NCBI RefSeq assembly: GCF_963921235.1
Contig: NC_086108.1
Location: 29,328,001-29,392,000 of the forward strand
Origin: Mobula hypostoma
Taxonomy: Eukaryota
Reading direction: 5' to 3'
Length of the DNA stretch: 64,000 nucleotides
Under the pieces are notes generated by a model, which saw only the letters and a list, made by a program, of their open reading frames with translations, was not told the DNA's origin and ran no database searches. A program made the translations under genes and the position numbers. Position 1 is the first letter of the stretch; each line of letters starts with the position of its first letter. Below, piece by piece: positions 1,279 to 64,000 of this stretch.

Positions 1279-1499
1279 TGCCTGAAGAATGTTGGGAAAC
1301 AGGCGGTCAGTGAACTCCAGGAGCAGGAACTCATCCACCATGAAAAACCACAGTTTTGCATGCTTTTGCAGATCAGGGACCTCAATAGAACTCCAGCCAC
1401 CTTGCAAAGGGAAAAAAAGAGACATTAAAGACGGGAGTTTAAGCTGATTCCAGAGATGAGCTTGAAGAGGCAGCCACTTGCGTTATCTTAATTCCGCCT

Positions 1500-1930
1500 A
1501 TCTTAACTTCTATTTTGGATTTTCTGAGTATGCCCGCAAGAATATTAATCTCAGGGTTGTATATGGTGGCATGAATATACTTAGATAGTAAATTATCTTT
1601 GAACTTTTCAACTTTGAACCATTAAAAATTCCCTGCATCATACATCTGCAGAAATTTGCTGAACTTTGTAGACATACCAAATCTCCTCAAACTCCTAATG
1701 AAGTAGAGCTGCTGCTGTGTCTTCGTCATGATCACAGCAATGTGTTAGGCCCCGGATAGATCCTCGAGATATTGACACTCAAGAACTTGACGCTGCCTTT
1801 CTCACCATTGACCCTTCAATGAGGATTGATGTGTGTTTTCCCTGACTTCACCTTCCTAAAGTCAATACCTTGGTCTTGGTCACGTTGACTGTGAGGTTGC
1901 TGCTTCCACTCAACCAGCCAATCTATCTCA
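1500..1930 (-). mobile_element. Rex1/Babar-type LINE fragments
   Basis: Antisense similarity to the RT 3' part seen at 600-850 (gtcaagttcttgagtgtcaatatctc; lyfirslrrfg-type coding). Confidence 0.5.
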
Positions 1931-2250
1931 CCTCCTCACCTCCCATTTGTCAGTGTCCCAAAAGATATCAAAGGATTAGAATTGTTCTCTGCAGAACCAG
2001 TTCCCTCAGCACATCAAATAGAGCAGGATTTTGCACTATGGTCTTGTAGACGCATCAATATTACCTGACATCCACACTCCCCAACTCTTTTTTCTTGTTA
2101 GTAATATTAGCTAGACCGATCACTTCAAAGCAGAACTAATCTCATCATTGAGCCATAGAGGACATAAATGCATGTTCAGACTGACCATTTAAAACCTACT
2201 TATATAGATATTAGCATTAATCCCATTGTAACATCCAACCCCACCGCCCC

Positions 2251-2252
<2 letters not shown>

Positions 2253-2296
<44 letters not shown>
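2253..2296. repeat. (CA)n microsatellite, about 22 units
   Basis: Direct reading. Confidence 0.98.
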
Positions 2297-2298
<2 letters not shown>

Positions 2299-2319
2299 CT
2301 CATCAACTCCCTCTAGATT

Positions 2320-2545
2320 CTATCACTTACAAAATTACTAGAGGCAACTTACAGTGGCTATGTAATGCACCATGCAGCATGCCTTTGAACTGTGGGAAGA
2401 AGGCAGCAGGCCGAGAGGAACACGTGTGAACATGGGGAGAGTGTGTGAACACCACACAGATAGTGTACCAAGTCAGAATGGAAATCCATTCTCTGGAGCT
2501 GTGATGCAGCAGCACTAAATGCTATTCCACTGTTGCAGCCCAATC
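2320..2545 (-). mobile_element. V-domain SINE (HE1-like), degenerate
   Basis: Reverse complement has the V-core-like tgtgtggtgttcacacactctccccatgttcacacgtgttcctctcggcctgctgccttcttcccacagttcaaag. Confidence 0.65.
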
Positions 2546-2546
2546 T

Positions 2547-3122
2547 CAGTCAGAGTTGACCATGGATATTGCGTCCTGGCTGTCTAGGTACACAAGCCTG
2601 GACAGGGCAATATGGAGAGCAAGCTGTTGCCCATGTAGCAATCTCCCCTCTCCATGCATCTGATGAATCCAAAAGGAACGGCAGAGACTGATACAGTTTG
2701 ATATCAGCAGTGTCGCAGGAGTTGCCAGTCAGCATTGAATTCAATGTAGGACTGCCCTAGGGACTCCAGCTCCAGATTTTTCCCTCGGGGTTTACCCCCA
2801 AAGCCTTTCCCATGAGTGGATATAGCTGCAAGGCAGAAGAGGGTTGAGATCAGAGTTTTCTTTCTCCTAGATGAGCTGCCAACCACAGCTGACGAGCCCC
2901 ATCTGCCCGAAGCGACTGGTTTTAAGGCATCAGTAACTTGCCTTTGCCCCTTCTCCTGTAGGTAGAAATGGTTCTGCTGGACATAATAGCTAGCCACACG
3001 TGAAGGGCAGGAGCTGGACTTGATTGCCAGAGGCTATTTAAGGCACACACAATTGGGAACTTTTAATAGGTAATGGGAGCTTGTCCCCATTATCACTCCA
3101 TTTATAACAACCTTAAGGAACC
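2547..3122 (-). mobile_element. Non-autonomous RTE-derived element (about 570 bp); second copy at 31783-32356
   Basis: End-to-end similarity to the inverted copy at 31783-32356; contains ggagaaggaaaactctga-like RTE 5' UTR motif; no coding capacity. Confidence 0.6.
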
Positions 3123-3454
3123 TTCAGGAGCAGTTAAAGCTGTGAAATAAAATGACAAGAGAGCTGGAAGGTATGAGTTGTATTTGAATTGCATGACATC
3201 TACATTCAGAATTAAAGACTCTGAATGTAAATCAAATACAGGTTTACATTCAGAAACGGTACAGCAGTTCAAGCATATGACAAAAATAGAATGAACATTG
3301 ACACAAGTCTATGAACAATAAATTGGAGCCAGGCTCCCAGACAGAATAAATTAGATGCCTTTAAGAGTCACATTTCACTTTAGCCATTTATAAAAGTCAC
3401 CAGTTCACATATTGCGCTCTGATATACAAAGGTATGTGATACTGGTAGGCCATT

Positions 3455-3790
3455 ATTCAGAATCAGAATCAGGTTTAATATCACTACTACATTTTGTGAA
3501 ATACGTTGTTTTGTGGCAGCAGTACATACATAATAACAGAATATAAATGACTATAATATATATATGTACACATACAAAAATTTAATTAAGTAATGCAAAA
3601 AGAGAACATTGCCCATTCCGAAATCTGATGGTGGAGGGGAAGATGCTAACACTGAAACATTGTGTGTCTTCGGCTCCTGTACCTTCTCTTTGATGGTAGC
3701 AATGAGAAGAGGGCATGTCCTGGTTGATGGAGGTCCTTAATGACAGATGCCACCTTTTGAAGATGTCCTCAATGCTGGCGAAGCTAGTGC
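3455..3790 (-). mobile_element. LINE 3' end (Rex1/Babar-type) with (TTCTGA)n tail
   Basis: tcagaatcagaatcaggtttaat tail; antisense IFPSTIRFRNG C-terminal-like peptide. Confidence 0.6.
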
Positions 3791-4525: not shown

Positions 4526-4848
4526 TATGTAGAAGATAGAGAGTTATGAGAAGGATAACTTGTTCATATACAGAGTGATTGATACTCCCACGCGCCATCG
4601 GCCTCCACTTTACTGCTGGCTGACTTTAAATGAATGATGGCAGGGTTGCTACAAGCTGCCTTCACACCCTTGAGTTATGCAGAGGCAAAATGGCTTCATT
4701 TTCCCCTTATGATTGTGGTTCAGTGATTGTAAGTGATTGTTGTGGACATTGGGTGTCAAAACTGGTCTGCAAGTCAATAAAATCTCTGCCCAGGCACAAA
4801 CATACAAGTTGGACAAATGTTATTTGCTAGTCACATTAGTTTGAGCCT

Positions 4849-5030
4849 CACACATCAAAGTTGCTGGTGAACGCAGCAGGCCAGGCAGCATCTCTAGGAA
4901 GAGGTACAGTCGATGTTTCAGGCCAAGACCCGTCGTACCTCTTCCTAGAGATGCTGCCTGGCCTGCTGCATTCACCAGCAACTTTGATGTGTGTTGCTTG
5001 AATTTCCAGCATCTGCAGAATTCCTCGTGT
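4849..5030. mobile_element. Penelope-derived hairpin element (two inverted PLE termini)
   Basis: 59-bp arms 4849-4907 and 4935-4993 with 1 mismatch, matching the termini of the PLE at 59460-63074; 13-bp TSD ttagtttgagcct at 4836-4848 and 5031-5043. Confidence 0.88.
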
Positions 5031-6029
5031 TTAGTTTGAGCCTTGCATGATTCAGAAAACAAAGTAAATTGGAATGGCCTTATATCATTACCAGAGCTGA
5101 ATTTTCTACATTCACCTTCCCATGGATTTTCAATTAACTGGTTGGGATGTGGTGATCTAGCAAGTTCAGAACAAAAGACTCAGCTTTCCTCTTCAGATCC
5201 TGCTCCCACTCTGTATAGATTTCTTCTTTCTTTAGTTTCCTTTCTTTGCCTCCTTCACTGAGAACATCTAATTTTGGAGAAGCCACCACTCAGCTGTCCA
5301 CCTCATAAACTGGTTAGTGTGCTGGGAGGAAACATTAACTCAGTAACCATAGAATTATTTTAATTGTAGCACAATCAATAAGCAATTTTATCCAACTATT
5401 TTTCCAACAATTCTCTTTCTGAAGATACATTCAACTGATCCTTCCCTCCAGTACAATGGTAAGTTTTCTGATTCTTAATCTTTGTGGTCTCTTTGAATAA
5501 GACAGATATTTCTAATAGTGTCAACTAATCAGCCATTTCACATGGATTAGCATTTAAATGTATTTCTTTCCAAGCTTTGTTTAACATTAAAATATCTGTT
5601 TGGTTTAACAGTAAATTACCAGTATTGACTCATTGAGAAACCTCTAGGATTGAAATAGACATAAGACAATCAGCTGACAAAATCAAGGATACATTGCTTT
5701 TAAAGTTAGAGGATGGAAATTGAATTGTAATTTCAGCAAGAGTCCCCACAGCAATGTTCCCGCTATTTTTTTTTTACAGCTGCATGAATCAAACTTTGCT
5801 CTGAGCAGTAAGTTCTTACACAGCCTGAAAAACTACATGGCATTTAAAATGGATGTTTTTGTAATCTGCATATTACAAAGTTGGCATTCAGTAGGCCAGT
5901 GGTTTATAAACAATGAGCTACTGGCTTCCATTCTGTGTTTATTGTTACCATTTTGTAACAGTGTAACTTAAAACACTGACAATGTAAATACGTTGAAGTT
6001 CTATAATGCTTCAAAGTAAAGATTGTGGT

Positions 6030-9055: not shown

Positions 9056-11692
9056 TAGAAACATAGAAAATAGGTGCAGGAGTAGGCCATTCGGCCCTTC
9101 GATCCTGCACCGCCATTCTGTATGATGATGGCTGATCATCCAACTCAGAACCCTGTACCAGCCTTCCCTCCATACCCCCTGATCCCTTTAGCCACAAGGG
9201 CCATATCTAACTCCCTCATAAATATAGCTAATGAACTGGCCTCAACTGTTTCCTGTGGCAGAGAATTCCACAGATTCACCACTCTCTGTGTGAAGAAGGT
9301 TTTCCTCATCTCGGTCCTAAAAGGCTTCCCCTTTATCCTCAAACTGTGATCCCTCGTTCTGGACTTCCCCAACATCAGGAACAATCTTCCTGCACCGAGC
9401 CTGTCCAATCCCTTTAGGATTTTATACGTTTCAATCAGATCCCCCCTCAATCTTCTAAATTCCAACGAGTACAAGCCCAGTTCATCCAGTCTTTCTTCAT
9501 ATGAAAGTCCTGCCATCCCAGGAATCAACCTGGTGAACCTTCTTTGTACTCCCTCTATGGCAAGGAGTCTTTCCTCAGATTAGGGGACCAAAACTGCACA
9601 CAATACTCCAGGTGTGGTCTCACCAAGGCCTTGTACAACTGCAGTAGTACCTCCCTGCTCCTGTACTCGAATCCTCTTGCTATAAATGCCAGCATACCAT
9701 TCACCTTTTTCACCGCCTGCTGTACCTGCATGCCCACTTTCAATGACTGGTGTATAATGACACCCAGGTCTCGTTGCACCTCCCCTTTTCCTAATCGGCC
9801 ACCATTCAGATAATAATCTGCTTTCCTGCTTTTGCCACCAAAGTGGATAACCTCACATTTATCCACATTAAATTGCATCTGCCATGAATTTGCCCACTTA
9901 CCTAACGTATTCAAGTCACCCTGCACCCTCTTAGCATCCTCCTCACAGCTAACACTGCCGCCCAGCTTCGTGTCATCCGCAAACTTGGAGATGCTGCATT
10001 TAATTCCCTCATCCAAGTCATTAATATATATTGTAAACAACTGGGGTCCCAGCATTGAGCCTTGCGGTACCCCACTAGTCACTGCCTGCCATTCTGAAAA
10101 GGTCCCGTTTATTCCCACTCTTTGCTTCCTGTCTGCCAACCAATTCTCTATCCACATCAATACCTTACCCCCAATACCGTGTGCTTTAAGTTTGCACACT
10201 AATCTCCTGTGTGGGACCTTGTCAAAAGCCTTTTGAAAATCCAAATATACCACATCCACTGGTTCTCCTCTATCCGTTCTACTAGTTACATCCTCAAAAA
10301 ATTCTATGAGATTCGTCAGACATGATTTTCCTTTCACAAATCCATGCTGACTTTGTCCGATCATTTCACCGCTTTCCAAATGTGCTGTTATCACATCTTT
10401 GATAACTGACTCCAGCAGTTTCCCCACCACCGATGTTAGGCTAACCGGTCTGTAATTCCCTGGTTTCTCTCTCCCTCCTTTTTAAAAAGTGGGGTTACAT
10501 TAGCCACCCTCCAATCCTCAGGAACTAGTCCAGAATCTAAAGAGTTTTGAAAAATTATCACTAATGCATCCACTATTTCTTGGACTACTTCCTTAAGCAC
10601 TCTGGGATGCAGACCATCTGGCCCTGGGGATTTATCTGCCTTTAATCCTGTCAATTTACCTAACACCACGTCCCTACTAACATGTATTTCCCTCAGTTCC
10701 TCCATCTCACTGGACCCTCTGTCCCCTACTATTTCTGGAAGATTATTTATGTCCTCCTTAGTGAAGACAGAACTAAAGTAATTATTCAATTGGTCTGCCA
10801 TGTCCTTGCTCCCCATAATCAATTCACCTGTTTCTGTCTGTAGGGGACCTACATTTGTCTTAACCAATCTCTTTCTTTTCACATATCTATAAAAGCTTTT
10901 ACAGTCAGTTTTTATGTTCCCTGCCAGTTTTCTCTCATTATCTTTTTTCCCCTTCCTAATTAAGCCCTTTGTTCTCCTCTGCTGAACTCTGAATTTCTCC
11001 CAGTCCTCAGGTGAGCAACTTTTTCTGGCTAATTTGTATGCTTCTTCTTTGGAATTGATACTATCCCTAATTTCCCTTGTCAGCCATGGGTGCACTACCT
11101 TCCTTGATTTATTCTTTTGCCAAACTGGGATGAACAATTGTTGTAGTTCATCCATGTGATCTTTAAATGCTTGCCATTGCATATCTACCATCAACCCTTT
11201 AAGTGTCATTTGCCAGTCTATCTTAGCTAATTCACGTCTCATACCTTCAAAGTTACCCTTCTTTCAGTTCAGAACCTTTGTTTCTGAATTAACTATGTCA
11301 CTCTCCATCTTAATGAAGAATTCCACCATATTATGGTCACTCTTACCCAAGGGGCCTCTCACGACAAGATTGCTAATTAATCCTTCCTCATTGCTCAAAA
11401 CCCAGTCTAGAATAGCCTGCTCTCTAGTTGGTTCCTCGACATGTTGGTTCAAAAAACCATCCCGCATACATTCCAAGAAATCCTCTTCCTCAGCACCCTT
11501 TCGAATTTGGTTCACCCAATCTACATGTAGATTGAAGTCACCCATTATAACTGCTGTTCCTTTATTGCACACATTTCTAATTTCCTGTTTAATACCATCC
11601 CCAACCTCACTACTACTGTTAGGTGGCCTGTACACAACTCCCACCAGCGTTTTCTGCCCCTTAGTGTTATGCAGCTCTACCCATATCGATTC
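9056..11692 (-). mobile_element. CR1 LINE, 5'-truncated; ORF2 (APE C-part + RT) broken by frameshifts
   Basis: ORFs 11264-11698 (YRPP, MGDFN, SDHN), 10436-11242 (KSPGPDG), 9555-10430 (YLDFQKAFDKV, GVPQGS, KFADDTK), 9145-9528; tail tagaaacatagaa. Confidence 0.95.
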
Positions 11693-26991: not shown

Positions 26992-27165
26992 CCAATGTAT
27001 AAATTGGTCTAAACAGCAGATTGTACCTTGCACTAGGACCCAGCTACTGCGAAGGGCTCGGGGCCTAGACCATGCTGCCCAGTGACTTGCTCCAGGCCCA
27101 GATTTTGCCGCCTGGCTCAAAGCCGCTCTCAAGCTCTTCAAATCAGCTTGGCACCTACAGCATTT

Positions 27166-27935
27166 CAACCTTGCACTCGGGCAGTTGTATGGCCATCAAA
27201 TATCCTCTGCCCAGACCCCAATTTCTCCTCTCACCACTCAGAGCGATCCAACCTTGCACTCGGGCAGTTGTATGGCCATCAAATATCCTCTGCCCAGACC
27301 CCAATTTCTCCTCTCACCACTCAGAGCGATCCAACCTCGCACTCGGGCAGTTGTATGGCCATCAAATATCCTCTGCCCAGACCCCAATTTCTCCTCTCAC
27401 CACTCAGAGCGATCCAACCTCGCACCCGGGCAGTTGTATGGCCATCAAATATCCTCTGCCCAGACCCCAATTTCTCCTCTCACCACTCAGAGCGATCCAA
27501 CCTCGCACCCGGGCAGTTGTATGGCCATCAAATATCCTCTGCCCAGACCCCAATTTCTCCTCTCACCACTCAGAGCGATCCAACCTTGCACTCGGGCAGT
27601 TGTATGGCCATCAAATATCCTCTGCCCAGACCCCAATTTCTCCTCTCACCACTCAGAGCGATCGAACCTTGCACTCGGGCAGTTGTATGGCCATCAAATA
27701 TCCTCTGCCCAGACCCCAATTTCTCCTCTCACCACTCAGAGCGATCCAACCTCGCACCCGGGCAGTTGTATGGCCATCAAATATCCTCTGCCCAGACCCC
27801 AATTTCTCCTCTCACCACTCAGAGCGATCGAACCTTGCACTCGGGCAGTTGTATGGCCATCAAATATCCTCTGCCCAGACCCCAATTTCTCCTCTCACCA
27901 CTCAGAGCGATCCAACCTCGCACCCGGGCAGTTGT
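27166..27935. repeat. 83-bp minisatellite, 9 full units plus a partial
   Basis: Unit caaccttgcactcgggcagttgtatggccatcaaatatcctctgcccagaccccaatttctcctctcaccactcagagcgatc with period 83 (27171, 27254 ... 27918). Confidence 0.97.
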
Positions 27936-28871
27936 TCAGGCATCGGAACTCCATCTGCAACCATTTTGCAACACACCGTCTCGGCTCATCCCCCAAACTT
28001 GCCCCTTCACCGTTTGCAGTGATAATTTAACACAATTTACCTCTGAAAAGGTATTTTTGGTGATGCTTTTAGTTGGATTTCTTAACCTTTTAACTATTAG
28101 AGAGCTGTCACGCATGTTCAGTAACCAGAAACTGAATGAAGATCAGAATGACTCTGCACTTAGTGATAACCCTGCAGAACATTGCCCTCTCCGTAATAAA
28201 CTGCACCCATTGCGAAAGTGCTGTGGCTTTAGATGAAAAAACTACTGACAAACAAAAGGCTTACCTGAAAGAGCAACAGATTTGCTTCAAATGGCGCTCT
28301 TCATCAACACATCTCACATGTAGCTGCAAGGCCACATTAAAGTGTGATGAGTGAATGACAACAGTCATGTTACAGCCCTACATCCTGCTCCCCCTCATTG
28401 GGCATCCAAGATTTTAGATGGCATTTCAAAGCATGGCAGGGAGGAAGAGGAAGAAACTTTGCCACTTGTGAGCTCTTTCTGCACAGAAGTTTGTAACAGC
28501 AATTTAGACACTAAATTCTGCTTAGTTTGCTGAGAAAAAAATGTATCCAAAAGGGCAATGAGAGAATGCTTTCAAAATGTAGGCTACGTTAAGTGAGCAG
28601 AGTGACATATGCTTAGCCTAGTCAGAGTTCTTTGATCTGTTTTGCACCCATGGTGATTCACCATCCTACATTTTAAAGATCTGTGCGGGTATAATGAAGA
28701 GATCAGGTAGAAGAGTCACGCATTATCTGATTGAAGCATGGAATATTGGCATTGCTCTTACACTTCCAACACTAACTAAGTCTAGTAGATATCCCAGACA
28801 ATTGCAAAGAAGTATTCACTCATGAGGCTGGTCTATCACACCCACTTTTAGATGATGAAGCCTAAATCATT

Positions 28872-29250
28872 AACGCGAGGAAGTCTGCAGAAGGTGGAAA
28901 TCCAAAGCAACATGCTCAAAATGCTCAGGGAACTCAACAGGCCTGGCAATGTCTATGCAGATGAATAGATAGTCGACATTGCAGGCTGAGACTCTTCTTC
29001 AGGAATTTTGTTACTCTTTCCACAGACTTGCCGAGTGTTCCCATCATTTTTAAAAATATTACATCCCTGGCTTCATCTATCACCTTCTAGCTTGTCCTCT
29101 CTCCTTCTCCTACCCCACCTTTTTATTCTGGCATCCTCCCCCATCCTTTCCAGTCCTGAAGAAGGGTCTTGGCCTGAAACGTCGACTATTTATTCATTTC
29201 CATAGATGCTGCCTGATCTGCTGAGTTCCTCCAGCAGTGAGTGTGTGTTG
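28872..29250. mobile_element. PLE-derived element with inverted termini
   Basis: Minus terminus about 28872-29005 and plus terminus about 29060-29250, each carrying the hammerhead-like motif (left one degenerate). Confidence 0.75.
29152..29187 (+). ncRNA. Minimal type I hammerhead ribozyme motif
   Basis: AGUC-CUGAAGA-A-GGGUCUUGGCCU-GAAACGUC-GACU: stem I AGUC/GACU, core boxes, palindromic ACGU stem III. Confidence 0.7.
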
Positions 29251-37964: not shown

Positions 37965-38590
37965 CCACCAGAGAAAGCAGGATCTTCCAGTGGCCACACA
38001 TTTTAATTCCATGTCCCATTCCCATTCTGATATGTCTATCCACGGCCTCCTCTAATGTAAAAATGAAGCCACACTCAGGTTGGAGGAACAACACCTTATA
38101 TTCCGTCTGGGTAGCCTCCAACCTGATGGCATGAACATTGCCTTCTCAAACTTCTGCTAATGCCCACCTCCCCTTCATACACCATCCGTTATTTATTTAT
38201 ACACACACATTCTTTTTTCTCTCTCCCCTTTTTCTCCCCCGTCCCTCTCACTTTACCCCTTACCCATCCTCTGGGTTCCCCCCTCCCCCTTTTCTTTCTC
38301 CCTGGCCTCCTGTCCCATGATCCTCTCATAATCCTTTTGCCAATCACCTGTCCAGCTCTTGGCTCCATCCCTCCCCCTCCTGTCTTCTCCTATCATTTCG
38401 GATCTCCCCCTCCCCCTCCCACTTTCAAATCTCTTACTAGCTCTTCTTTCAGTTAGTCCTGACGAAGGGTCTTGGCCCGAAACAGCGACTGTACCTCTTC
38501 CTAGAGATGCTGCTTGGCCTGCTGCGTTCAACAGCAACTTTTATGTGTCTGGCTTGAAATTCCAGCATCTGCAGATTTCCTTGTGTTTGG
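37965..38590 (+). mobile_element. Penelope-like element 3' fragment (GIY-YIG C-terminus, pyrimidine-rich 3' UTR, terminus with mutated hammerhead)
   Basis: RKQDLPVATHFNS...LRLEEQHLIFRLGSLQPDGMNI; motif at 38455-38490 has GAAACAGC in place of GAAACGUC. Confidence 0.88.
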
Positions 38591-40499
38591 GCTAGGCATT
38601 TGTTCAGCATGGATCATTTGGGTCGAGGGGCCTGTTTCGTTGCTGTATGACTATAATAGCACTGTACTTTCCTTTGTTAGAAGAACTGCAATGAAGACAG
38701 AAACACACCACAACTTCTTAAAGACAATCAGGGAAGGGTAACAAGTTCTATCTTTGCTTGTGATACCAAAATTCCAAAAAAAAAGAATTTTTAAAAAAAA
38801 AAACTTATTATTAACAGTATTCTTGTTTCAGTTGGGAATTTTCCAAAATTCACTTAGATCAGTAGAGTCATGGAGAAAAATTACAGAAACAGATCGTACA
38901 GCCCAGAGTCAACACTGGCCATCTTCACATACACTAATCCTTCTCTATGCCTCTAACTCTCTTCCTGTTCCCATTAACTATCCCCAGACTCCACCACTTG
39001 TCTACTCTCATAGGGCAATGGACAATGGCCAATTCACCCACCAACGCATATTGTTTTGGGACGTTGAGGAAAACAACGTTTCTTGGGGAACCCCTTGTGG
39101 TCACAGAGAGAATGTGCAAACTCCTCATAGACAACGCCAGAGATCAGAATCAAACCTGAGTCACTGGAGCAGAGAAGCAGCAGCTCTACCAATTGCATCA
39201 CAGGACTTATATTCGTCAGCAGTCTGGGTACCCTGAATCTCCTATGTCAGGAGTGGATGAAAATAGATTACACTCACTAGTTCAAACCTACTCTAGAATT
39301 AAGTTTATTAGATGAAATCTTGCAAGAAAAACTTGCCACTTAGGTCAAACAATCACCATGCCCTAACCTAACCATGATAATTCTTCCAAAAGACCCTCAG
39401 CATGGCTAGTAGCCACGCTTTCCTCACTGCACCTTGTAATCCTCACCAATCACAAACCCTTGCAATAGATAGACATTACACTCTATCAACAGGTCTGCAT
39501 ATGGGTATCAATTGATCCATTTTGAATGATACTAGACTTTTCAGACAGTTTATCGGTGTTAGATCCTCAGGGCAGCTGATCACTTTATGTATCCTTGTGG
39601 GTAGCTTATTGATGTTGTTGGTGCAGAATCTAAATTACTTTCTCCATTGTCTATGCAGAATCAATTATCATCATTGACCTATATGACGTGAATTTTGCTT
39701 TGTAGCAGTACAGTGCAAAAATATATTACTATAAATTACAAAAATAAAAAGTGCAAAATAAAGAAATAACAGTGTTTGTGGACTGTTCAGAAATCTGATA
39801 GCAGAGGGCAAGCTGTTCCTGAATCACTGAGTGTGGGTCTTAAGGCTCCTCCAACTGCTCATGAAGAGAGTACATCCTCCCCAAACCAGTAAACTGTGCC
39901 ACATTTAAGTACAGAAAGAACAGCTTCAAGAAAAGACCTTCCAAGACTCTATTCACACTGGTGATCTTGAACTTCCAGTTGTGTCACATTAACTCTCTGC
40001 CCCTTTCCACACCACTGTCTGACCTTGGCCTTCTCTATTGTTGTAGAGAGGTTAAATGCAAATCTTATGCTATTCAGTTTGGTTATCTTACAACCTAATG
40101 GTATGAACACTGAATTTTCCAACTTCAGGTAACCCATACCAAGTGTTCTCGCACACACTCACTTGTCCACCTAGTTCTCTTCTTCCTCAGGATGGACACA
40201 CTAAAGAAGGAGTTAGAAGAATTCATTGATCCCTTCGGAAATCACCCACATTAAACTTATAATATGCAAGGAAGCCACCAAGTTTCTTGGGAAACAGGTT
40301 ATCTAAATTGGTTCAGGTCACCAACAATCACAGTTCAGTAACAAAGCTGCTTTTCACAAGCACACATGCTGACTCATGTGCACAAAGTCATCATTCAATA
40401 CACCCTTCTGTGAGCTAGTGCTTTTCCACTGTCAGTAAATTTGTGGAATTTGTACAGTAAACCTTTTCAAAGCTCTGAGGTTGGGCGTATGGCTTGCTA

Positions 40500-40600
40500 A
40501 AGCTTTTGGCCCGAAACGTCAACTGTAGACTTTTCCATAGATGCTGCCTGACCTGTTGAGTTCCTCCAGCATTTCGTGTGTGTTGCTTGGATCTCCAGCA
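40500..40600 (+). mobile_element. PLE terminus fragment
   Basis: ggcccgaaacgtcaactgtagacttttccatagatgctgcctgacctgttgagttcctccagcatt. Confidence 0.7.
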
Positions 40601-46309: not shown

Positions 46310-47750
46310 TACTTTATACTTTATTGTCGCCAAACAATTGATACTAGAGCGTACAATCATCACAGCAATATTTGATTCTGCGCTTCGTGCTTCCTGGAGT
46401 ACAAATCGATAGTAAATATTAAAAATTTAAATTATAAATCATAAATTAAAAATAGAAAAGGGAAAGTAAGGTAGTGCAAAAAAACCGAGAGGCAGGTCCG
46501 GATATTTGGAAGGTACGACTCAGATCTGGGTCAGGATCCATTCAGCAGTCTTATCACAGTTGGAAAGAAGCTGTTCACAAATCTGGCCATATGAGTATTC
46601 AAGCTCCTGAGCCTTCTCCCGGAGGAAAGAGGGACGAAAAGTGTGTTGGCTGGGTGGGTCATGTCCTTGATTATACTGGCAGCACTGCTGCAACAGCGTG
46701 CAGTGTAAAGTGAGTCCAAGGACGGAAGATTGGTTTGTGTGATGTGCTGGGCTGTGTTCATGATGTTCTGCAGCTTCTTCCGGTCTTGGACAGGACAACT
46801 TCCATATCAGGTTGTGATGCACCCTAGAAGAATGCTTTCTACTGTGCATCTATAAAAATTAGTGAGGGTTTTAGGGGACAGGCCAAGTTTCTTTAGCTTT
46901 CTCAGGAAGTAAAGGCGCTGGTGGGCCTTCTTGATAGTGGACTCTGCTTGGTTGGACCAAGTCAGGTCATTTGTGATATTGACCCCGAGGAACTTGAAGC
47001 TTTTGACCTGGTCCACTTGCGCACCACCGATATAAATGGGGTTGTGCGGTCCGCTACTCCTTCTGAAGTCAACAACCAATTCCTTCATCTTGCTGACGTT
47101 GAGGGATAGGTTATTGTCTTCGCACCATGCCACCAGGTTCTTAATTTCCTCTCTGTACTCAAACTCATTATTATCCGAGATATGGCTTACAACTGTGGTG
47201 TCATCAGCAAACTTATATATTGAGTTCAATGGAAACTTGGCTACACAATCAGTAAACAGCCTTGTGGGGCACCGGTGCTCAGAGTGATTGCAGAGGAGAG
47301 CCTGTCCCCTATTTTTACAGGCTGGGTCCTGTCTGTGAGGAAGTTGAAGATCCAGCTCCAGATTTGAGCGCTAAGGCCCACGTTCCAGAGCTTAGGAATC
47401 AGTTTATTTGGAATAATGGTATTAAAGGCAGAGCTGTAGTCAATGAAAAGAGCCTCACATATATGTCTTTATTCTCCAGGTGTTCTATGGAGGAATGCAG
47501 GGCCAGAGAGATGGCATCTGCCATTGACCTGTTGCTCTGGTAGGCGAATTGCAAAGCGTCGAGGTTGACTGGTAGGCTGTGGTTGATGTGTGCCATTACC
47601 AATCGCTTGAAGTACTTCATAGCAATTGATGTCAGGGCCACAGGTCGATAGTCATTCAGACATGCCACCTTGCTCTTCTTCGGCACTGGGATTATCGTTG
47701 CCTCCTTAAAACACGAGGGGATCTTAAGACTGAAGCAAGCAGCAGTTTAA
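46310..47750 (-). mobile_element. Rex1/Babar LINE, RT and 3' end
   Basis: [75 protein letters not shown]. Confidence 0.92.
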
Positions 47751-51825: not shown

Positions 51826-52043
51826 AGCAACACACATCAAAGTTGCTGGTGAACGCAGCAGGCCAGGCAGCATCTCTAGGAAGAGGTACAGTCGACGTTT
51901 CGGGCCGAGACCCTTCGTCAGGACTAACTGAAAGAAGAGATAGTAAGAGATTTGAAAGTGGGAGGGGAAGGGGAAGATCCAAAATGATAGGAGAAGACAA
52001 GAGGGGGAGGGATGGAGCCAAGAGCTGGATAGTTGATTGGCAA
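51826..52043 (-). mobile_element. Young PLE terminus
   Basis: Near-identical to the reverse complement of 38340-38550 and close to 59495-59710. Confidence 0.88.
51890..51925 (-). ncRNA. Minimal type I hammerhead ribozyme motif
   Basis: Minus strand AGUC-CUGACGA-A-GGGUCUCGGCCC-GAAACGUC-GACU. Confidence 0.75.
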
Positions 52044-53284: not shown

Positions 53285-54560
53285 ATTCCAGGTGAGGCAA
53301 CACTTTACCTGCAAATCTGTTGGGGTCATCTACTTAGCTGGTGCTCCCTATGCAGCCTCCTCTACACTGGTGAGACCCAACGTAGATTGGGGGACCGCTT
53401 TATCAAGCTCCATCAGCAAAAGACAGGATTTCTCAGTGGCCAACTAGTTTAATTCCTCTCCCATTCCCATTCTGACATATCGGTCCATAGCCTCCTCTGT
53501 AGTTAAGAAGTTGAGTAGTTCCAAGTTCCTTGGTATACACATCACCGAGGATCTCACAGCAGTGCCTCTTTCACCTCAGATGGCTGAATAGGTTTGGCAT
53601 GAGTCCCAAAATTCTCAGGGCTTTCTACAGGGACACCATCGAGAGCATCCTGACTGGCTGTGTTACTGCCTGAAACCCTCAATTGCAGAGCACTACAGAG
53701 AGTGGTGCGGATAGCCCAGCGCATCTATTCAGGACATTTACAGCAGCAGGTGCATAAAAAGGGTCTGGAGGATCATCAGGGACTCCAGCCACAGCAACCA
53801 CAAAGTGATACAGCTGCTTCCGTCTGGCAAACTGTACCACAGCATTAAGGCCAGGACAGCTTCTTTCACCAGGCTATCAGATTTTCAATACACATTGATC
53901 TAACTGCATACCTGACTGTACACACATGTATACAAAACAATTCCATACATAATCTTAGTGATTGGGCAATATCTTCCCACATTTCCCCTCTTTATTGTTT
54001 ATACATAGCGACGGCAATGAAACATAAAGATTTGTATCTAAGAAATAAAATTCTAAATCTATATCTACTGCCATGATGAAGCCTCTCTCAGGTTGGAGGA
54101 GAAACACCTCATATTCCATCCTGATGGCATGAACACAGATTTCTCCAACCTCCAGTCATTTCCCCCCTCCCTCTTTTTCTCTTCCCTTTTTCTATCCCTT
54201 ACTCTGGCTTCTTACTTCTTCTCCTCACCTACCTATCACCTCCCCTAGTGCTCCTCCTCCTTCCCTTTCACCCATGGTCCACTCTCCTCTCCTATCAGAT
54301 TCCTTCTTCTCCAGTCCTTCACTTTTCCACCCATCACCTCCCAGCTTGTTACTTCACTCCCCCCCTCACCTAACCCAACAGGCTTTACCTATCATTTTCT
54401 AGCTTGTCAAGCTTACCCTCTCCCCACCACCTTTTGCTGGCATCTTCCCCCTTCCTTTCCAGTCCTGAAGGGTCTCAGCTCGAAATGTTGGCTGCTCTTT
54501 CATTAGTGTAGATGTTGCCTGACCTACTGAGTTCCTCCAGTTTTTTGTGTGTGTTGCACA
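53285..54560 (+). mobile_element. PLE 3' fragment split by a Rex-type LINE insertion (about 53500-54064)
   Basis: FQVRQHFTCKSVGVIY; PLE sequence ...gcctcctct resumes as tctactgccatgatgaag; insert encodes FYRDTIESILTGC and LLPSGK. Confidence 0.8.
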
Positions 54561-55396: not shown

Positions 55397-58300
55397 ATAG
55401 AAACATAGAAAATAGGTGCAGGAGTAGGCCATTCGGCCCTTCGAGCCTGCACCGGCATTTATTATGATCATGGCTGATCATCCAACTCAGAACCCTGCAC
55501 CATACCCTCTGATCCCCATAGCCACAAGGGCCATATCTAACTCCCTCTTAAATATAGCCAATGAACTGGCCTCAACTGTTTCCTGTGACAGAGAATTCCA
55601 CAGATTCACCACTCTCTGTGTGAAGAAGTTTTTCCTAATCTCAGTCCTAAAGGGCTTCCCCTTTATCCTCAAACTGTGACCCCTCGTTCTGGACTTCCCC
55701 AACATCGGGAACAATCTTCCTGCATCTAGCCTGTCCAATCCCTTTAGGATTTTATACGTTTCAATCAGATCCCCCCTCAATCTTCTAAATTCCAACGAGT
55801 ACAAGCCTAGTTCATCCAGTCTTTCTTCGTATGAAAGTCTGGTGAACCTTCTTTGTACTCCCTCTATGGCAAGGATGTCTTTCCTCAGATTAGGGGACCA
55901 AAACTGCACACAATACTCCAGGTGTGGTCTCACCAAGGCCTTGTACAACTGCAGTAATACCTCCCTTCTCCTGTACTCGAATCCTCTCGCTATAAATGCC
56001 AGCATACCATTCGCCTTTTTCACCGCCTGCTGTACCTGCATGCCCACTTTCAATGACTGGTGTATAATGACACCCAGGTCTCGTTGCACCTCCCCTTTTC
56101 CTAATCGGCCACCATTCAGATAATAATGTTTTCCTATTTTTGCCACCAAAGTGGATAACTTCACAGTTATCCACATTAAATTGCATCTGCCATGAATTTG
56201 CCCAGCCACCCAACCTATCCAAGTCACCCTGTATCCTCTTAGCATCCTCCTCACAGCTAACACTGCCGCCCAGCTTCGTGTCATCCGCAAACTTGGAGAT
56301 GCTGCATTTAATTCCCTCATCCAAGTCATTAATATATATTATAAACAACTGGGGTCCCAGCACTGAGCCTTACGGTACCCCACTAGTCACTGCCTGCCAT
56401 TCTGAAAAGGTCCCGTTTATTCCCACTCTTTGCTTCCTGTCTGCTAACCAATTCTCTATGAACATCAATACCTTAGCCCCAATACCGTGTGCTTTAAGTT
56501 TGCACACTAATCTCCTGTGTGGGACCTTGTCAAAAGCCTTTTGAAAATCCAAATATACCACATCCACTGGTTCTCCCCTATCCACTCTACTAGTTACATC
56601 CTCAAAAAATTCTATGAGATTCATCAGACATGATTTTCCTTTCACAAATCCATGCTGACTTTGTCCGATGATTTCACCACTTTCCAAATGTGCTGTTATC
56701 ACATCTTTGATAACTGACTCGAGCAGTTTCCCCACCACCGACATTAGGCTAACCGGTCTATAACTCCCCGGTTTCTCTCTCCCTCCTTTTTTAAAAAGTG
56801 GGGTTACATTAGCCACCCTCCAATCCTCAGGAACTAGTCCAGAATCTAATGAGTTTTGAAAAATTATCACTAATGCATCCAATATTTCTTGGACTACTTC
56901 CTTAAGCACTCTGGGATGCAGACCATCTGGCCCTGGGGATTTATCTGCCTTCAATCCCTTCAATTTACCTAACACCACTTCCCTACTAACACGTATTTCG
57001 CTCAGTTCCTCCATCTCACTGGACCCTCTGTCCCCTACTATTTCTGGAAGATTATTTATGTCCTCCTTAGTGAAAACAGAACCAAAGTAATTATTCAATT
57101 GGTCTGCCATGTCCTTGCTCCCCATAATCAATTCACCTGTTTCTGTCTGTAGGGGACCTACAGTTGTCTTTACCAGTCTTTTCCTTTTTACATATCTATA
57201 AAAACTTTTACAGTCAGTTTTTATGTTCCCTGCCAGTTTTCTCTCATAATCTTTTTTCCCCTTCCTAATTAGGCCCTTTGTCCTCCTCTGCTGAACTCTG
57301 ACTTTCTCCCAGTCCTCAGGTGAGCCACTTTTTCTGGCTAATTTGTATGCTTCTTCTTTGGAATTGATACTATCCCTAATTTCTCTTGTCAGCCACGGTT
57401 GCACTACCTTCCTTGATTTATTCTTTTGCCAAACTGGGATGAACAATTGTTGTAGTTCATCCATGCAATCTTTAAATGCTTGCCATTGCATATCCACCGT
57501 CAATCCTTTAAGTGTCATTTGCCAGTCTATCTTAGCTAATTCACATCTCATACCTTCAAAGTTACCCCTCTTTAAGTTCAGAACCTTTGTTTCTGAATTA
57601 ACTATGTCACTCTCCATCTTAATGAAGAATTCCACCATATTATGGTCACTCTTACCCAAGGGGCCTCTCACGACAAGATTGCTAATTAACCCTTCCTCAT
57701 TGCTCAAAACCCAGTCTAGAATAGCCTGCTCTCTAGTTGGTTCCTTGACGTGTTGGTTCAAAAAACCATCCCGCATACATTCCAGGAAATCCTCTTCCTC
57801 AGCACCTTTACCAATTTGGTTCATCCAGTCTACATGTAGATTGAAGTCACCCATTATAACTGCTGTTCCTTTATTGCACACATTTCTAATTTCCTGTTTA
57901 ATACCATCTCCGACCACACTACTACTGTTAGGTGGCCTGTACACAACTCCCACCAGCGTTTTCTGCCCCTTAGTGTTATGCAGCTCTACCCATATCAATT
58001 CCACATCTTCCCGGCTTATGTCCTTCCTTTCTATTGCGTTAATCTCATCTTTAACCAGCAACGCCACCCCACCTCCTTTTCTTTCATGTCTATCCCTCCT
58101 GAATATTGAATATCCCTGAACGTTGAGCTCCCATCCTTGGTCATCCTGGAGCCATGTCTCTGTGATCCCAACTATATCATAATCATTAATAGCAACTGCA
58201 CTTTCAATTCATCCACCTTACGAATGCTCCTTGCATTGACACACAAAGCCTTCAGGCGCTCTTTTACAACTCTCTTAGCCCTTATACAATTATGTTGAAA

Positions 58301-58853: not shown

Positions 58854-59557
58854 AATATGACCTTAGGAGGAGAGCAAGTGATAAAAATATTGTTGTTACA
58901 GGTTTATTTTTAGTTTTTATTTTGTGTTTACTGGAGATTAGAGACAAAAAGCACCAGCAACACCTGGTGTGAGTACATGGCGATCAACACCAGCAATATT
59001 GTCAATATAGCTCATTTATATCATGTGAGAATGTCCATGAACAGAAATGGAATGGGAATCATCACTATTATTGAAACAAAAAAATATGAAATAAAACAAG
59101 ATTATGAACATATTTGAACCTACTTTTACTGGAATAGTTTACTTTCCTTTCAGTTTTTGACTCTCTGCTACTGCTCTCTAAGGAATACCCTACTGGGTGA
59201 AGCATCCATTTGCAAATAGGTTTTCTGCCTTCTCCACTTGCATTACTCGTTTCCTTGTGTGTAATAATCAATCATTTCCTGGAAGTTGCTGTCAGAAGCT
59301 CACCTCCTTCCTCAGTTCAGCACTAGACATTAGATAGATAGATATACTTTATTGATCCCGAGGGAAATTGGGTTTTGTTACAGCTACACCAAACAAGAAT
59401 AGAGCATAAATATCGCAATACAAAACCCACAAACAAACAAACAACAATATGCAAACTATAAACAACAGGAATTCTGCAGATGCTGAAAATTCAAGCAACA
59501 CACATCAAAGTTGCTGGTGAATGCAGCAGGCCAGGCAGCATCTCGAGGAAGAGGTAC

Positions 59558-59593
59558 AGTCGACGTTTCAGGCCGAGACCCTTCGTCAGGACT
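59558..59593 (-). ncRNA. Minimal type I hammerhead ribozyme motif
   Basis: Minus strand AGUC-CUGACGA-A-GGGUCUCGGCCU-GAAACGUC-GACU. Confidence 0.75.
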
Positions 59594-59890
59594 AACTGAA
59601 GGAAGAGTGAGTAAGGGATTTGAAAGTTGGAGGGGGAGGGAGAGATCCAAAATGATAGGAGAAGACAGGAGGAGGAGGGATAGAGCCAAGAGCTGGACAA
59701 GTGATAGGCAAAAGGGGATACGAGAGGATCATGGGACAGGAGGTCCGGGAAGAAAGACAAGGTGGGGAGGGGGAACCAGAGGATGGGCAAGAGGTATATT
59801 CAGAGGGACAGAGGGAGAAAAAGGAGAGTGAGAGAAAGAATGTGTGCATAAAAATGAGTAACAGATGGGGTACGAGGGGAAGGTGGGGCC

Positions 59891-60975
59891 TTAGCGGAAG
59901 TTAGAGAAGTCGATGTTCATGCCATCAGGTTGGAGGCTAACCAGACGGAATATAAGGTGTTGTTCCTCCAACCCGAGTGTGGCTTCATCTTTACAGTAGA
60001 GGAGGCCGTGGATAGACATGTCAGAATGGGAATGGGATGTGGAATTAAAATGTGTGGCCACTGGGAGATCCTGCTTTCTCTGGCGGACAGAGCGTAGATG
60101 TTCAGCAAAGCGGTCTCCCAGTCTGCGTCGGGTCCCGCCAATATATAAAAGGCCACATCGGGAGCACCGGACGCAGTATATCACCCCGGTCGACTCACAG
60201 GTGAAGTGTTGCCTCACCTGGAAGGACTGTTTGGGGCCCTGAATGGTGGTAAGGGAGGAAGTGTAAGGGCATGTGTAGCACTTGTTCCGCTTACACGGAT
60301 AAGTGCCAGGAGGGAGATCAGTGGGGAGGGATGGGGGGGACGAATGGACAAGGGAGTTGTGTAGGGAGCGATCCCTGCGGAATGCAGAGAGACGGGGGGA
60401 GGGAAAGATGTGCTTAGTGGTGGGATCCCGTTGGAGGTGGCGGAAGTTACGGAGAATAATATGTTGGACCCGGAGGCTGGTGGGGTGGTAGGTGAGGACC
60501 AGGGGAACCCTATTCCTAGTGGGGTGGCGGGAGGATGGAGTGAGAGCAGATGTACGTGAAATGGGGGAGATGCGTTTAAGGGCAGAGTTGATAGTGGAGG
60601 AAGGGAAGCCCCTTTCTTTAAAAAAGGAAGACATCTCCCTCGTCCTAGAATGAAAAGCCTCATCCTGAGAGCAGATGCGGCGGAGACAGAGGAATTGTGA
60701 GAAGGGGATGGCGTTTCTGCAAGAGACAGGCTGAGAAGAGGAATAGTCCAGATAGCTGTGAGAGTCAGTAGGCTTATAGTAGACATCAGTGGATAAGCTG
60801 TCTCCAGAGACAGAGACAGAAAGATCTAGAAAGGGGAGGGAGGTGTCGGAAATGGACCAGGTAAACTTGAGGGCAGGGTGAAAGTTGGAGGCAAAGTTAA
60901 TAAAGTCAACGAGTTCTGCATGCGTGCAGGAAGCAGCGCCAATGCAGTCGTCGATGTAGCGAAGGAAAAGTGGGG
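59891..60975 (-). pseudogene. PLE ORF fragment (RT YIDD through complete GIY-YIG endonuclease)
   Basis: LRYIDD; CKRNKCYTC; GVIYCVRCSRCGLLYIGGTRRRLGDRFAEH...EQHLIFRL.SLQPDGMN. Confidence 0.9.
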
Positions 60976-62689
60976 TACCTCCTCTTATTTACCCCTCGAT
61001 CGTGACCCCACTAAGGAGCACCAGGCCATTGTCTCCCACACCATCACCGACTTTATCCGCTCAGGGGATCTCCCACCCACTGCTACCAACCTTATAGTTC
61101 CCACACCCCGCACTTCCCGTTTCTACCTCCTACCCAAGATCCACAAACCTGCCTGTCCTGGCCGACCTATTGTCTCAGCTTGCTCCTGCCCCACCGAACT
61201 CATTTCTGCATACCTCGACACTGTTTTATCACCCCTTGTTCAATCCCTTCCGACCTATGTTCGTGACACTTCTCACGCTCTTAAACTTTTCGATGATTTT
61301 AAGTTCCCTGGCCCCCACCGCTTTATTTTCACCATGGATGTCCAGTCCTTATATACTTACATCCCCCATCAGGAAGGTCTCAAAGCTCTACGCTTCTTTT
61401 TGGATTCCAGACCTAATCAGTTCCCCTCTACCACCACTCTGCTCCGTCTAGCGGAATTAGTCCTTACTCTTAATAATTTCTCCTTTGGCTCCTCCCACTT
61501 CCTCCAGACTAAAGGTGTAGCTATGGGCACCCGTATGGGTCCTAGCTATGCCTGCCTTTTTGTTGGGTTTGTGGAACAATCTATGTTCCGTGCCTATTCT
61601 GGTATCTGTCCCCCACTTTTCCTTCGCTACATCGACGACTGCATTGGCGCTGCTTCCTGCACGCATGCAGAACTCGTTGACTTTATTAACTTTGCCTCCA
61701 ACTTTCACCCTGCCCTCAAGTTTACCTGGTCCATTTCTGACACCTCCCTCCCCTTTCTAGATCTTTCTGTCTCTGTCTCTGGAGACAGCTTATCCACTGA
61801 TGTCTACTATAAGCCTGCTGACTCTCACAGCTATCTGGACTATTCCTCTTCTCAGCCTGTCTCTTGCAAAAATGCCATCCCCTTCTCACAATTCCTCCGT
61901 CTCTGCGGCATCTGCTCTCAGGATGAGGCTTTTAGGACGAGGGAGATGTCTTCCTTTTTTAAAGAAAGGGGCTTCCCTTCCTCCACTATCAACTCTGCCC
62001 ATAAACGCATCTCCCCCATTTCATGTACATCTGCTCTCACTCCATCCTCCCGCCACCCCACTAGGAATAGGGTTCCCCTGGTCCTCACCTACCACCCCAC
62101 CAGCCTCCGGGTCCAACATATTATTCTCCGTAACTTCCGCCACCTCCAACGGGATCCCACCACTAAGTACATCTTTCCCTCCCCCCCTCTCTCTGCATTC
62201 CGCAAGGATCGCTCCCTACACAACTCCCTTGTCCATTCGTCCCCCCCATCCCTCCCCACTGATCTCCCTCCTGGCACTTATCCGTGTAAGCGGAACAAGT
62301 GCTACACATGCCCTTACACTTCCTCCCTTACCACCATTCAGGGCCCCAAACAGTCCTTCCAGGTGAGGCAACACTTCACCTGTGAGTCGACCGGGGTGAT
62401 ATACTGCGTCCGGTGCTCCCAATGTGGCCTTTTATATATTGGCGAGACCTGATGCAGACTGGGAGACTGCTTTGCTGAACACATACGCTCTGTCCGCCAG
62501 AGAAAGCAGGATCTCCCAGTGGCCACACATTTTAATTCCACATCCCATTCCCATTCTGACATGTCTATCCACGGCCTCCTCTACTGTAAAGATGAAGCCA
62601 CACTCAGGTTGGAGGAACAACACCTTATATTCCGTCTGGGTAGCCTCCAACCTGATGGCATGAACATCGACTTCTCTAACTTCCGCTAA
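60976..62689 (+). pseudogene. PLE RT + GIY-YIG ORF, 5'-truncated, one premature stop at 62450-62452
   Basis: FYLLPKIHK, GRPIVS, MDVQSLYT, GVAMGTRMGPSYA, RYIDD, FLDL, VIYC..C..C...YIGET; TGA where the other arm has CGA. Confidence 0.93.
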
Positions 62690-62986
62690 GGCCCCACCTT
62701 CCCCTCGTACCCCATCTGTTACTCATTTTTAGGCACACATTCTTTCTCTCACTCTCCTTTTTCTCCCTCTGTCCCTCTGAATATACCTCTTGCCCATCCT
62801 CTGGTCCCCCCCCCCCACCTTGTCTTTCTTCCCGGACCTCCTGTCCCATGATCCTCTCGTATCCCCTTTTGCCTATCACTTGTCCAGCTCTTGGCTCTAT
62901 CCCTCCCCCTCTTCTCTTCTCCTATCATTTTGCACCTCCCCCTCCCCCTCCAACTTTCAAATCCCTTACTCACTCTTCCTTCAGTT

Positions 62987-63022
62987 AGTCCTGACGAAGG
63001 GTCTCGGCCTGAAACGTCGACT
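62987..63022 (+). ncRNA. Minimal type I hammerhead ribozyme motif
   Basis: AGUC-CUGACGA-A-GGGUCUCGGCCU-GAAACGUC-GACU; predicted cleavage after C63018. Confidence 0.75.
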
Positions 63023-64000
63023 GCACCTCTTCCTACAGATACTGCTTGGCCTGCTGCGTCCACCAGCAACTTTGATATGCAAACTATGCCAGGTGGAAAT
63101 AAGTCCAGGACCAGCCTATTGGCTCAGGGTGTCTGACCCTCCACGGGAGAAGCTGCAAAGTTCGATGGCCACAGGCAAGGACAACCTCCCATGACGCCCA
63201 GTGTTGTATCTCAGTGGAATATGGCCAGAGTCCAACAGCAAAAAGTTCAATATCCAGTCTAGAAACACATTCCTCGATCGTAATATGACCAGGATTGCAC
63301 CATCCGTTGTTAACCAGAACACCAAGTCCCCAACTCCTTTACGCTTACCGCTCTCAGTGCACTTCCGGTCAGCCCGAACGGACTGGAAGGCCTCCATGGA
63401 AAAGTTTTGGTCGGGTATGTCCTCGTGCAGCCCCGTCTCAGTAAAACACATAACACTCTACTCCCGAAATGTTCTCTGACTCCTGGCTAGGGCCGTCAAC
63501 TCGTCCATTTTATTACCCACCAAACTCCTCTTCTCCCTAAGTTTCTGTTGTCTCGACCTGGTCCTCTTTCCTCAGCTCTGTGATCCCCCTCTGAATCCTC
63601 TGTGTGTTTTCCTCCAGATTTCAGCAGGAATGTCCGCCACTCTGTTCGCTAAACTGGCCGGCATAAGCGCAATCAACTGGATCCTGGAATAAACAATGCA
63701 ACCATACTGCTGCCCCGCTAATGAAACATGTCCAAATGTAACTATTTCCAGCGCTAAAAACCCAAATCAAACTCTCTCCACCAGCATGTTAGAGAGGGTG
63801 CAGCTTTAACGTGTTACCATGAAAAGAAAATACAACAAATAACGTAAGTTAAAAAAGTAAGAAGACTAGTCGGAACGGCTGTAACAGGCTGCATGCACGT
63901 CTGGTGCATGCGCACTATTTTGGTAAATTCAGTTTCTCTATTAATCCAGCCAGTTCCATCCAACTCTACTAAATATTTCATGTTCAGAATCTAGAATAAT

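Follow-up and report, generated by a model that had tools for sequence, protein, structure and literature searches.

Introduction

In 2014, Cervera and De la Pena (PMC4209133) described minimal hammerhead ribozymes (min-HHRs) associated with Penelope-like elements (PLEs) of metazoans. The group is covered in a review (PMC6765202) and, as cited there, was also treated by Lunse, Weinberg and Breaker in RNA Biol. According to the 2014 description, these motifs are of type I and have no helix III of their own. They carry an extra nucleotide lying after position 9 and before 10.1, a G10.1-C11.1 pair, a palindrome at positions 15.2-16.2, and a helix I of 4-5 bp, and they belong to the end repeats of elements encoding a reverse transcriptase (RT) and a GIY-YIG endonuclease. 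They reach massive copy numbers, with many single motifs or opposite-strand pairs 100-700 bp apart, and their cleavage in vitro is poor, also when they are dimers (PMC4209133).

The insertions left by PLEs have been described by Craig et al. 2021 (PMC8557442) as heavily 5'-truncated, often in partial tandems (pseudo-LTRs, or pLTRs), with a further copy, itself 5'-truncated, inverted at the 5' end, and with an extension of 30-40 bp that is confined to one end. The same account gives a cysteine linker (CX2-5CxxC) as a trait of the Neptune and Nematis clades, and reports that PLE clades without hammerheads thrive at huge copy numbers.

Two other systems are close enough to invite comparison. Non-LTR retrozymes (Cervera and De la Pena 2020, PMC7229834; Li, Clavereau and Pollet 2026) have type I hammerheads related to PLE end repeats, and their copies, where these exceed one unit, point to a possible circular or multimeric template; they are organised as short tandem-array units. 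The dimer hammerheads of newt satellites and viroids (Forster et al. 1988; via PMC4209133 and PMC6765202) have a short helix III with a loop, and are found in tandem satellites or circular RNAs.

Here, we examine a 36-nt motif that recurs in a 64,000-nucleotide stretch of the Mobula hypostoma genome, referred to below as the window. Judged by its letters and its setting, the motif is the minimal type I hammerhead of PLEs described in 2014, and the kind is therefore already described (PMC4209133; PMC6765202). It agrees with the published min-HHRs in type, in lacking its own helix III, in the palindrome, in the extra nucleotide between A9 and 10.1, in the 4-bp helix I, in its place in the end repeat of an RT and GIY-YIG element, and in its massive copy number with many single or opposite-strand paired copies. 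It differs from them in three ways. Helix II has 4 bp, while 6-8 bp are reported for Drosophila virilis and Schistosoma; a G.U pair marks the dominant young form where G10.1-C11.1 is called 'highly conserved'; and the stems are identical across families, whereas many covariations are reported for the published families (PMC4209133). Like retrozymes, the elements studied here leave copies of more than one unit. In contrast to retrozymes, they form almost no short head-to-tail junctions (12 in the genome), and unlike the newt and viroid motifs, this one has no looped helix III and lies in a retrotransposon tail.

The motif as a minimal hammerhead

Sequence comparison across the 64-kb window places exact copies of the 36-nt motif AGTCCTGACGAAGGGTCTCGGCCTGAAACGTCGACT at 62987-63022(+) and 59558-59593(-). 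One mismatch separates it from the copy at 51890-51925(-), and two from that at 29152-29187(+), so that all four places for which a first-pass annotation had claimed an intact motif hold it with zero to two differences. Read by eye, the motif is laid out as AGUC, CUGACGA, A, GGGU-CUCG-GCCU, GAA, ACGU, C, and GACU. In hammerhead numbering, the 5' strand of helix I (AGUC) is followed by C3-U4-G5-A6-C7-G8-A9 and an extra A. Next come G10.1-G-G-U, the loop CUCG, and G-C-C-(C/U)11.1, and then G12-A13-A14, A15.1-C-G-U16.1, and C17, after which GACU supplies the 3' strand of helix I. Helix I consequently has 4 bp (AGUC/GACU). Helix II, which the first-pass annotation had left loosely defined, is a clean 4-bp stem (GGGU/GCCY, including a U.G pair) with the tetraloop CUCG.

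The conserved core (C3 U4 G5 A6 N7 G8 A9, G12 A13 A14, A15.1, U16.1, and H17) is complete in the four intact copies when read directly. The hammerhead boxes, GUC triplet, 4-bp stem I, and short stem II of the first-pass annotation are all borne out. Helices I and II are present in a single motif, while helix III is absent and the ACGU palindrome stands in its place. As ACGU is self-complementary, a 4-bp helix III could form, but only between two copies. The predicted cleavage site of the copy at 62987 lies after C63018.

The extra A between A9 and 10.1, the palindromic C15.2-G16.2 within ACGU, and the 4-bp helix I are all traits of PLE min-HHRs. The extra A had been likened to a viroid hammerhead, and one with an extra core nucleotide is indeed known (De la Pena and Flores 2001; via PMC4209133 and PMC6765202). 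The nucleotide is present as claimed, but it is better seen as a hallmark of the PLE min-HHRs themselves (PMC4209133). The C/U alternative at the last position of helix II falls at 11.1, the partner of G10.1. The U form stems from a CpG-to-TpG change and gives a G.U wobble that closes helix II; it is found at 62987, 59558, and 29152, while the copy at 51890 has C and a G-C pair.

A descriptor of the form CTGANGA-N10-16-GAAACGTC gave four matches in the window and none in 100 shuffles. The Rfam hammerhead models, which had been suggested as a check, gave no match at the gathering score or at E <= 10 over the whole window, nor at E <= 10 on the 91 nt of 62960-63050. This is because the models need helix III, and is not a sign that the motif is absent. 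Free-energy folding of a lone 36-mer yields a rod made of AGUC/GACU, GACG/CGUC, and helix II, and folding of two copies yields a long duplex; a nested model cannot represent a shared helix III. The competing, inactive rod, in which core GACG pairs with CGUC, is possible only if N7 is C.

The host element and its copies in the window

The copies at 59558 and 62987 lie in a single PLE insertion (59460-63074), which consists of two head-to-head, 5'-truncated copies bordered by a 13-bp target-site duplication, ATATGCAAACTAT, at 59447-59459 and 63075-63087. The minus arm (59460-60978) runs from unit position 3646 back to 2134 and carries the 'extension' considered below, and the plus arm (60973-63074) runs from unit position 1499 to 3600. 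Both arms are 96.25% identical to a young full copy. On the plus arm, an open frame at 60830-62452(+) encodes a reverse transcriptase with a YIDD motif and is frameshifted before the endonuclease; its RVT_1 match (E 5.3e-05) is below the Pfam cut-off. The minus-arm open frame, 59891-60988(-), holds the C-terminal part of the RT, a CX4CX2C linker, and GIY-YIG, and ends in PDGMNIDFSNFR before its stop codon; the GIY-YIG match (E 0.0037) is again below the Pfam cut-off. After the motif on the plus arm, a conserved 3' tail that starts GATGCTGCYTGGCCTGCTG extends to the end of the copy (63023-63074, +).

At E <= 1e-10, 72 relatives longer than the minus-arm protein itself were found. One of these, P0008 (806 aa), is 50% identical over 96% of the minus-arm query and matches Pfam RVT_1 with 29.4 bits and GIY-YIG with 25 bits, the latter above its cut-off of 22.6. 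An RT followed by a C-terminal GIY-YIG, as predicted from these matches, is the architecture of endonuclease-positive PLEs. The traits of that group are all present: the RT with C-terminal GIY-YIG, the pseudo-LTR partial tandems, the inverted 5'-truncated partner, and the extension at one end. Together with the CX4CX2C-type linker, this resembles the Neptune/Nematis-type elements of Craig et al. (PMC8557442), a likeness drawn from architecture.

The motif sits about 291-295 nt past the stop of the RT and GIY-YIG open reading frame (ORF) and about 60 nt short of the 3' end of the element. The C-terminus of this ORF is found about 300-375 nt upstream of four window copies, including those at 38455, 40505 (about 375 nt), and 54462. 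Four copies, from at least two families, therefore keep the motif in the same place, after the stop and before the end. The adjoining ORF and this fixed place agree with the earlier reading of a minimal type I hammerhead, its helix III reduced to ACGU, near PLE 3' ends.

The other copies are shorter or older. The motif at 51890 lies within a copy of about 220 nt that is truncated at its 5' end (unit 3394 to 3612). That at 29152 belongs to a second PLE family, B1, with N7 = A, the loop CUUG, and U11.1; its head-to-head partner at 28971-29004(-) is decayed and has GCAA for GAAA. The dead motif at 38455-38490(+) reads GAAACAGC, with positions 16.2 and 16.1 mutated, in an older truncated copy that is 87.6% identical to the young unit and still has the ORF C-terminus at 38117. 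Only the 3' half of the motif, GGCCCGAAACGTCAACT, is left at 40500-40524(+), about 375 nt after an ORF C-terminus at 40089-40131. At 54461-54493(+), about 305 nt after an ORF C-terminus at 54115, the motif has CpG decay and a 3-nt deletion in CUGANGA-A, giving GAAATGTT. Lastly, a partial motif at 4908-4934(-) is cut inside CUGANGA (unit positions about 8 to 36). It forms the centre of a small head-to-head insertion, 4848-5032, with a target-site duplication, AGTTTGAGCC, at 4838-4847 and 5033-5042. This insertion is a single event in which two tails flank one partial hammerhead. Relatives of the motif are thus found at all five places listed earlier as mutated or partial, with the limits at 4908 and 54462 as given here.

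We infer that the window's own motif copies, truncated and decayed as they are, are dead. Because the copies at 59558 and 62987 form an inverted pair, a read-through RNA would be likely to bury both motifs in a 1.5-kb hairpin.

The window also holds other repeats. Two LINE copies, 9056-11263(-) and 55398-58208(-), lie 46.3 kb apart and are 93-98% identical over the repeat blocks found; one matches an AP-type endonuclease and a reverse transcriptase, and the other, partly scanned, matches a reverse transcriptase. A tandem array of about 11 copies of an 83-bp unit, 94-97% alike, occupies 27069-28032, with chance open frames across it. At 46807-47370(-), a reverse-transcriptase fragment is followed by a Pfam match to the ALKBH8 N-terminal domain (E 4.3e-13).

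Abundance and the full-length unit

Within the 3.48-Gb genome, the 36-mer occurs in 32,886 exact copies with U11.1 and in 4,891 with C11.1, and its 5' half, AGTCCTGANGAAGGGT, in 123,735. A 28-nt tail anchor of family A has 57,718 exact copies, and a 31-nt tail anchor common to further families has 11,056. The 36-mer written backwards, used as a control, has none. The dispersed set is hence as large as had been supposed. The G.U form is dominant in the youngest copies as well as in total number.

A 173-residue N-terminal piece of a shark relative (P0043), used as a query, gave 13,958 first-look candidates in the genome. Scoring of 150 of these showed about 73% identity throughout and, in many of them, an open frame of 1,043 codons, which indicates that the family is young. 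Ten full-length copies (from loci L093-L104, e.g. C40:574500-589000) define a unit of 3,512 nt, measured between the starts of successive motifs. It comprises the motif (1-36), the tail (to about 101), a short leader, the ORF (first Met near 171), and a pyrimidine-rich 3' UTR of 291 nt. U11.1 is found in every motif of these young copies, in upstream and downstream repeats alike.

All ten full-length copies exceed one unit, and one locus, which also has an inverted partner, amounts to 2.25 tandem units. In eight of the ten, an upstream motif in the same sense precedes the downstream one by 3,512-3,519 nt. Eight begin 200-1,070 nt before the upstream motif and two inside the upstream tail. Copies of more than one unit fit a prediction of the circle model of 2014 (PMC4209133), but transcripts of tandem copies would yield the same.

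Insertion structure

The structure of insertions was studied in the first 80 tail-anchored copies on contig 1 (L001-L080). An inverted partner abuts the 5' end in 36 of these 80, and about 29% are short stubs of motif plus tail; such stubs, about 95-135 nt long, bear target-site duplications. Neighbouring motif pairs in 500 kb comprise 25 in head-to-head, 2 in tail-to-tail, and 16 in direct order, with a few pairs entering the count twice where some loci overlap. The direct pairs are mostly about 3.5 kb apart, and no same-strand pair closer than 300 nt was found in the 500 kb. Short head-to-tail junctions, with a unit start and a motif within 40 nt, number only 12 in the genome.

All of the copies examined align collinearly with the 3.5-kb autonomous unit. 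The short copies are accordingly 5'-truncated ends of an autonomous PLE, often arranged head-to-head, and the view in the first-pass annotation that many lie on non-autonomous elements is not supported. The anatomy of insertions matches the PLE description in PMC8557442, and one feature can be specified beyond that description: the extension, a stretch of about 35 nt that follows the tail in roughly four of ten copies, and on one arm only of a pair, is the start of the next unit. Copies accordingly have alternative 3' ends, TGTTGCTTG or, about 35 nt further on, TGTTGTTTG, and the two sites are near-identical.

Several copies without the extension (L007, L008, L011, L025, and L054) carry 4-10 nt of the extension end, as its reverse complement, at their 5' end, e.g. 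AACAACAGGA. These junctions look as if both nicked target strands had been primed on the same RNA 3' end. In addition, 8 nt at the start of the tail, AGATGCTG (window 63033-63040), are complementary to CAGCATCT, about 70 nt downstream in the leader of the next unit. The complementarity is kept in families A and B1; in family C, a G replaces the A, and a G.U pair would result. A long-range helix that closes the tail is one possible outcome of such pairing.

The 5' ends of copies are not spread evenly. The motif is reached by 71 sampled copies, of which 23 end at hammerhead positions -4 to +13 (binomial P 3.7e-11), which corresponds to 62983-62999 in reference coordinates. End density at the 5' edge of the motif is 1.35 per nt, against 0.05-0.10 upstream and 0.25-0.31 downstream. 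Clean target-site duplications indicate that these are true copy ends, and inspection by eye shows the same end position in families B1 and C. In contrast, 5' ends at the predicted cleavage site were found in 2 of 80 sampled copies and in none of 51 long copies.

Copies that reach the second, upstream motif pass through it in 13 of 13 cases (9 from the full-length set and 4 from a further 40; P 0.006 at an equal stop rate). The stop is therefore not a simple sequence block, and belongs to the 3'-terminal module. Transcription start at the 5' edge of the motif, where TCAGTT is initiator-like, is disfavoured, as no long copy begins at this point and 13 continue past it. The count of only 12 short head-to-tail junctions rules out a mini-circle of about 135 nt, whether spliced or rolling. 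Our preferred guess is that the pile-up marks an early abortive stop at the edge of a motif-plus-tail module to which the RT would be bound. None of the published models considered here explains why one-third of copies end at the 5' edge of the motif.

Families, constraint, and core mutants

Four PLE families of the genome carry the motif (A, B1, C, and D), the last three recovered with the second tail anchor. Family B1 has CUGAAGA and the loop CUYG, family C the loop UCCG, and family D CUGCCGA, which is an A6-to-C change in the core. Pairwise comparison of A, B1, and C gives mean identities of 0.75-0.86 for the motif and 0.75-0.90 for the tail, whereas the 72 nt upstream reach 0.59-0.67 and the spacer after the motif 0.59-0.68. 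As the earlier prediction would have it, the core boxes are kept better than their flanks (0.75-0.86 vs 0.59-0.68).

The commonest base differs among these three families only at N7, at two positions of loop 2, at 11.1 (C/U), and at sites of CpG decay in the older families, while all 11 fixed core letters are unchanged. CpG-decay sites aside, the differences between families sit where hammerheads tolerate change, a pattern that fits a hammerhead. Families A, B1, and C show no covariation in the stems, which are identical, and the comparison consequently brings no independent proof of the structure. A pattern that excludes G at 10.2 finds 2,798 genomic copies, mostly with single uncompensated changes, i.e. 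decay. The motif is fully intact in 24 of 58 sampled family-A copies that hold its 5' end, and dead copies decay freely.

The A6C subfamily (loci L113, L114, and L118) has 2,755 exact 16-mers in the genome, against 456 for an A6T control and 123,735 for CUGANGA. A lineage with a damaged core has therefore made thousands of copies, and has spread without a strict need for an intact core. Taken together, the dominant G.U form, the spread of A6C, the poor cleavage in vitro, and the thriving hammerhead-free clades weaken the case that cleavage is strictly needed.

Possible roles of the motif

The reading we favour, at a probability of roughly 0.6, is that PLE terminal repeats carry a minimal type I hammerhead, predicted to cut after GUC only when two copies pair through ACGU into a shared helix III. 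The transcript of a copy longer than one unit would hold two same-sense motifs 3,512 nt apart, which could pair and cleave. Cleavage would release an RNA of unit length, which, following the 2014 proposal, might be circularised and copied for more than one round. If instead many copies were separate, non-autonomous elements of the retrozyme kind, spread through small circular RNAs, the stubs that make up about 29% of the sample and the existence of copies of more than one unit would be accounted for, and a 2026 preprint does derive animal retrozymes from PLE end repeats (10.64898/2026.07.22.740005). We regard this as highly improbable, given that short head-to-tail junctions number 12 in the genome, that same-strand pairs under 300 nt number none in 500 kb, and that all copies are collinear with the autonomous unit.

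The pile-up of 5' ends bears on a different proposal, namely that the motif owes its retention mainly to being the 5' part of a 3' module, about 95 nt long, that the RT binds or uses for its start, with self-cleavage weak or vestigial. The 23 of 71 copies that stop at the motif's 5' border and leave stubs with target-site duplications, the 13 of 13 that pass the upstream motif, and a tail as well conserved between families as the motif itself would all follow from it. The G.U form that dominates young copies, the spread of the A6C subfamily, and the low in vitro activity of PLE min-HHRs (PMC4209133) point the same way. Yet protein binding would not require that family variation be confined to catalytically tolerated positions with 11 core letters fixed, and an early abortive stop could have other causes. 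We therefore hold this proposal to be unlikely, though not negligible, and grade in the same way its more specific form, in which the hammerhead and the 60-nt tail would make up the 3' module where Penelope RT starts, and the motif would be kept at least as much for that start as for cutting. Less probable again is that the PLE tail passes the motif on as a passenger, of no use to element or host. That idea is raised in PMC8557442 ('if HHRs simply parasitize PLEs') alongside the hammerhead-free, high-copy clades, and the A6C subfamily and the G.U form would fit it. Against it stand the better preservation of the motif relative to its flanks in three families with 3' UTRs that hardly align, and the small size of the core-mutant subfamily (2,755 vs 123,735).

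Significance for PLE hammerheads

The main value of this finding lies in a large natural data set: more than 120,000 copies, in several PLE families, within one genome, where one of these families is young and has numerous open frames of 1,043 codons. For the question of what PLE hammerheads do, it offers ready-made variants, namely G-C and G.U at 10.1/11.1, the A6C subfamily, and the dead copy at 38455. The anatomy of the copies bears on the same question, as all ten full-length copies exceed the unit, ends do not single out the predicted cleavage site, and a third of them fall at the 5' edge of the motif. One insertion in three is just the hammerhead-plus-tail module, and, if that module is where the RT starts, the motif would owe its retention to the start of reverse transcription no less than to cutting.
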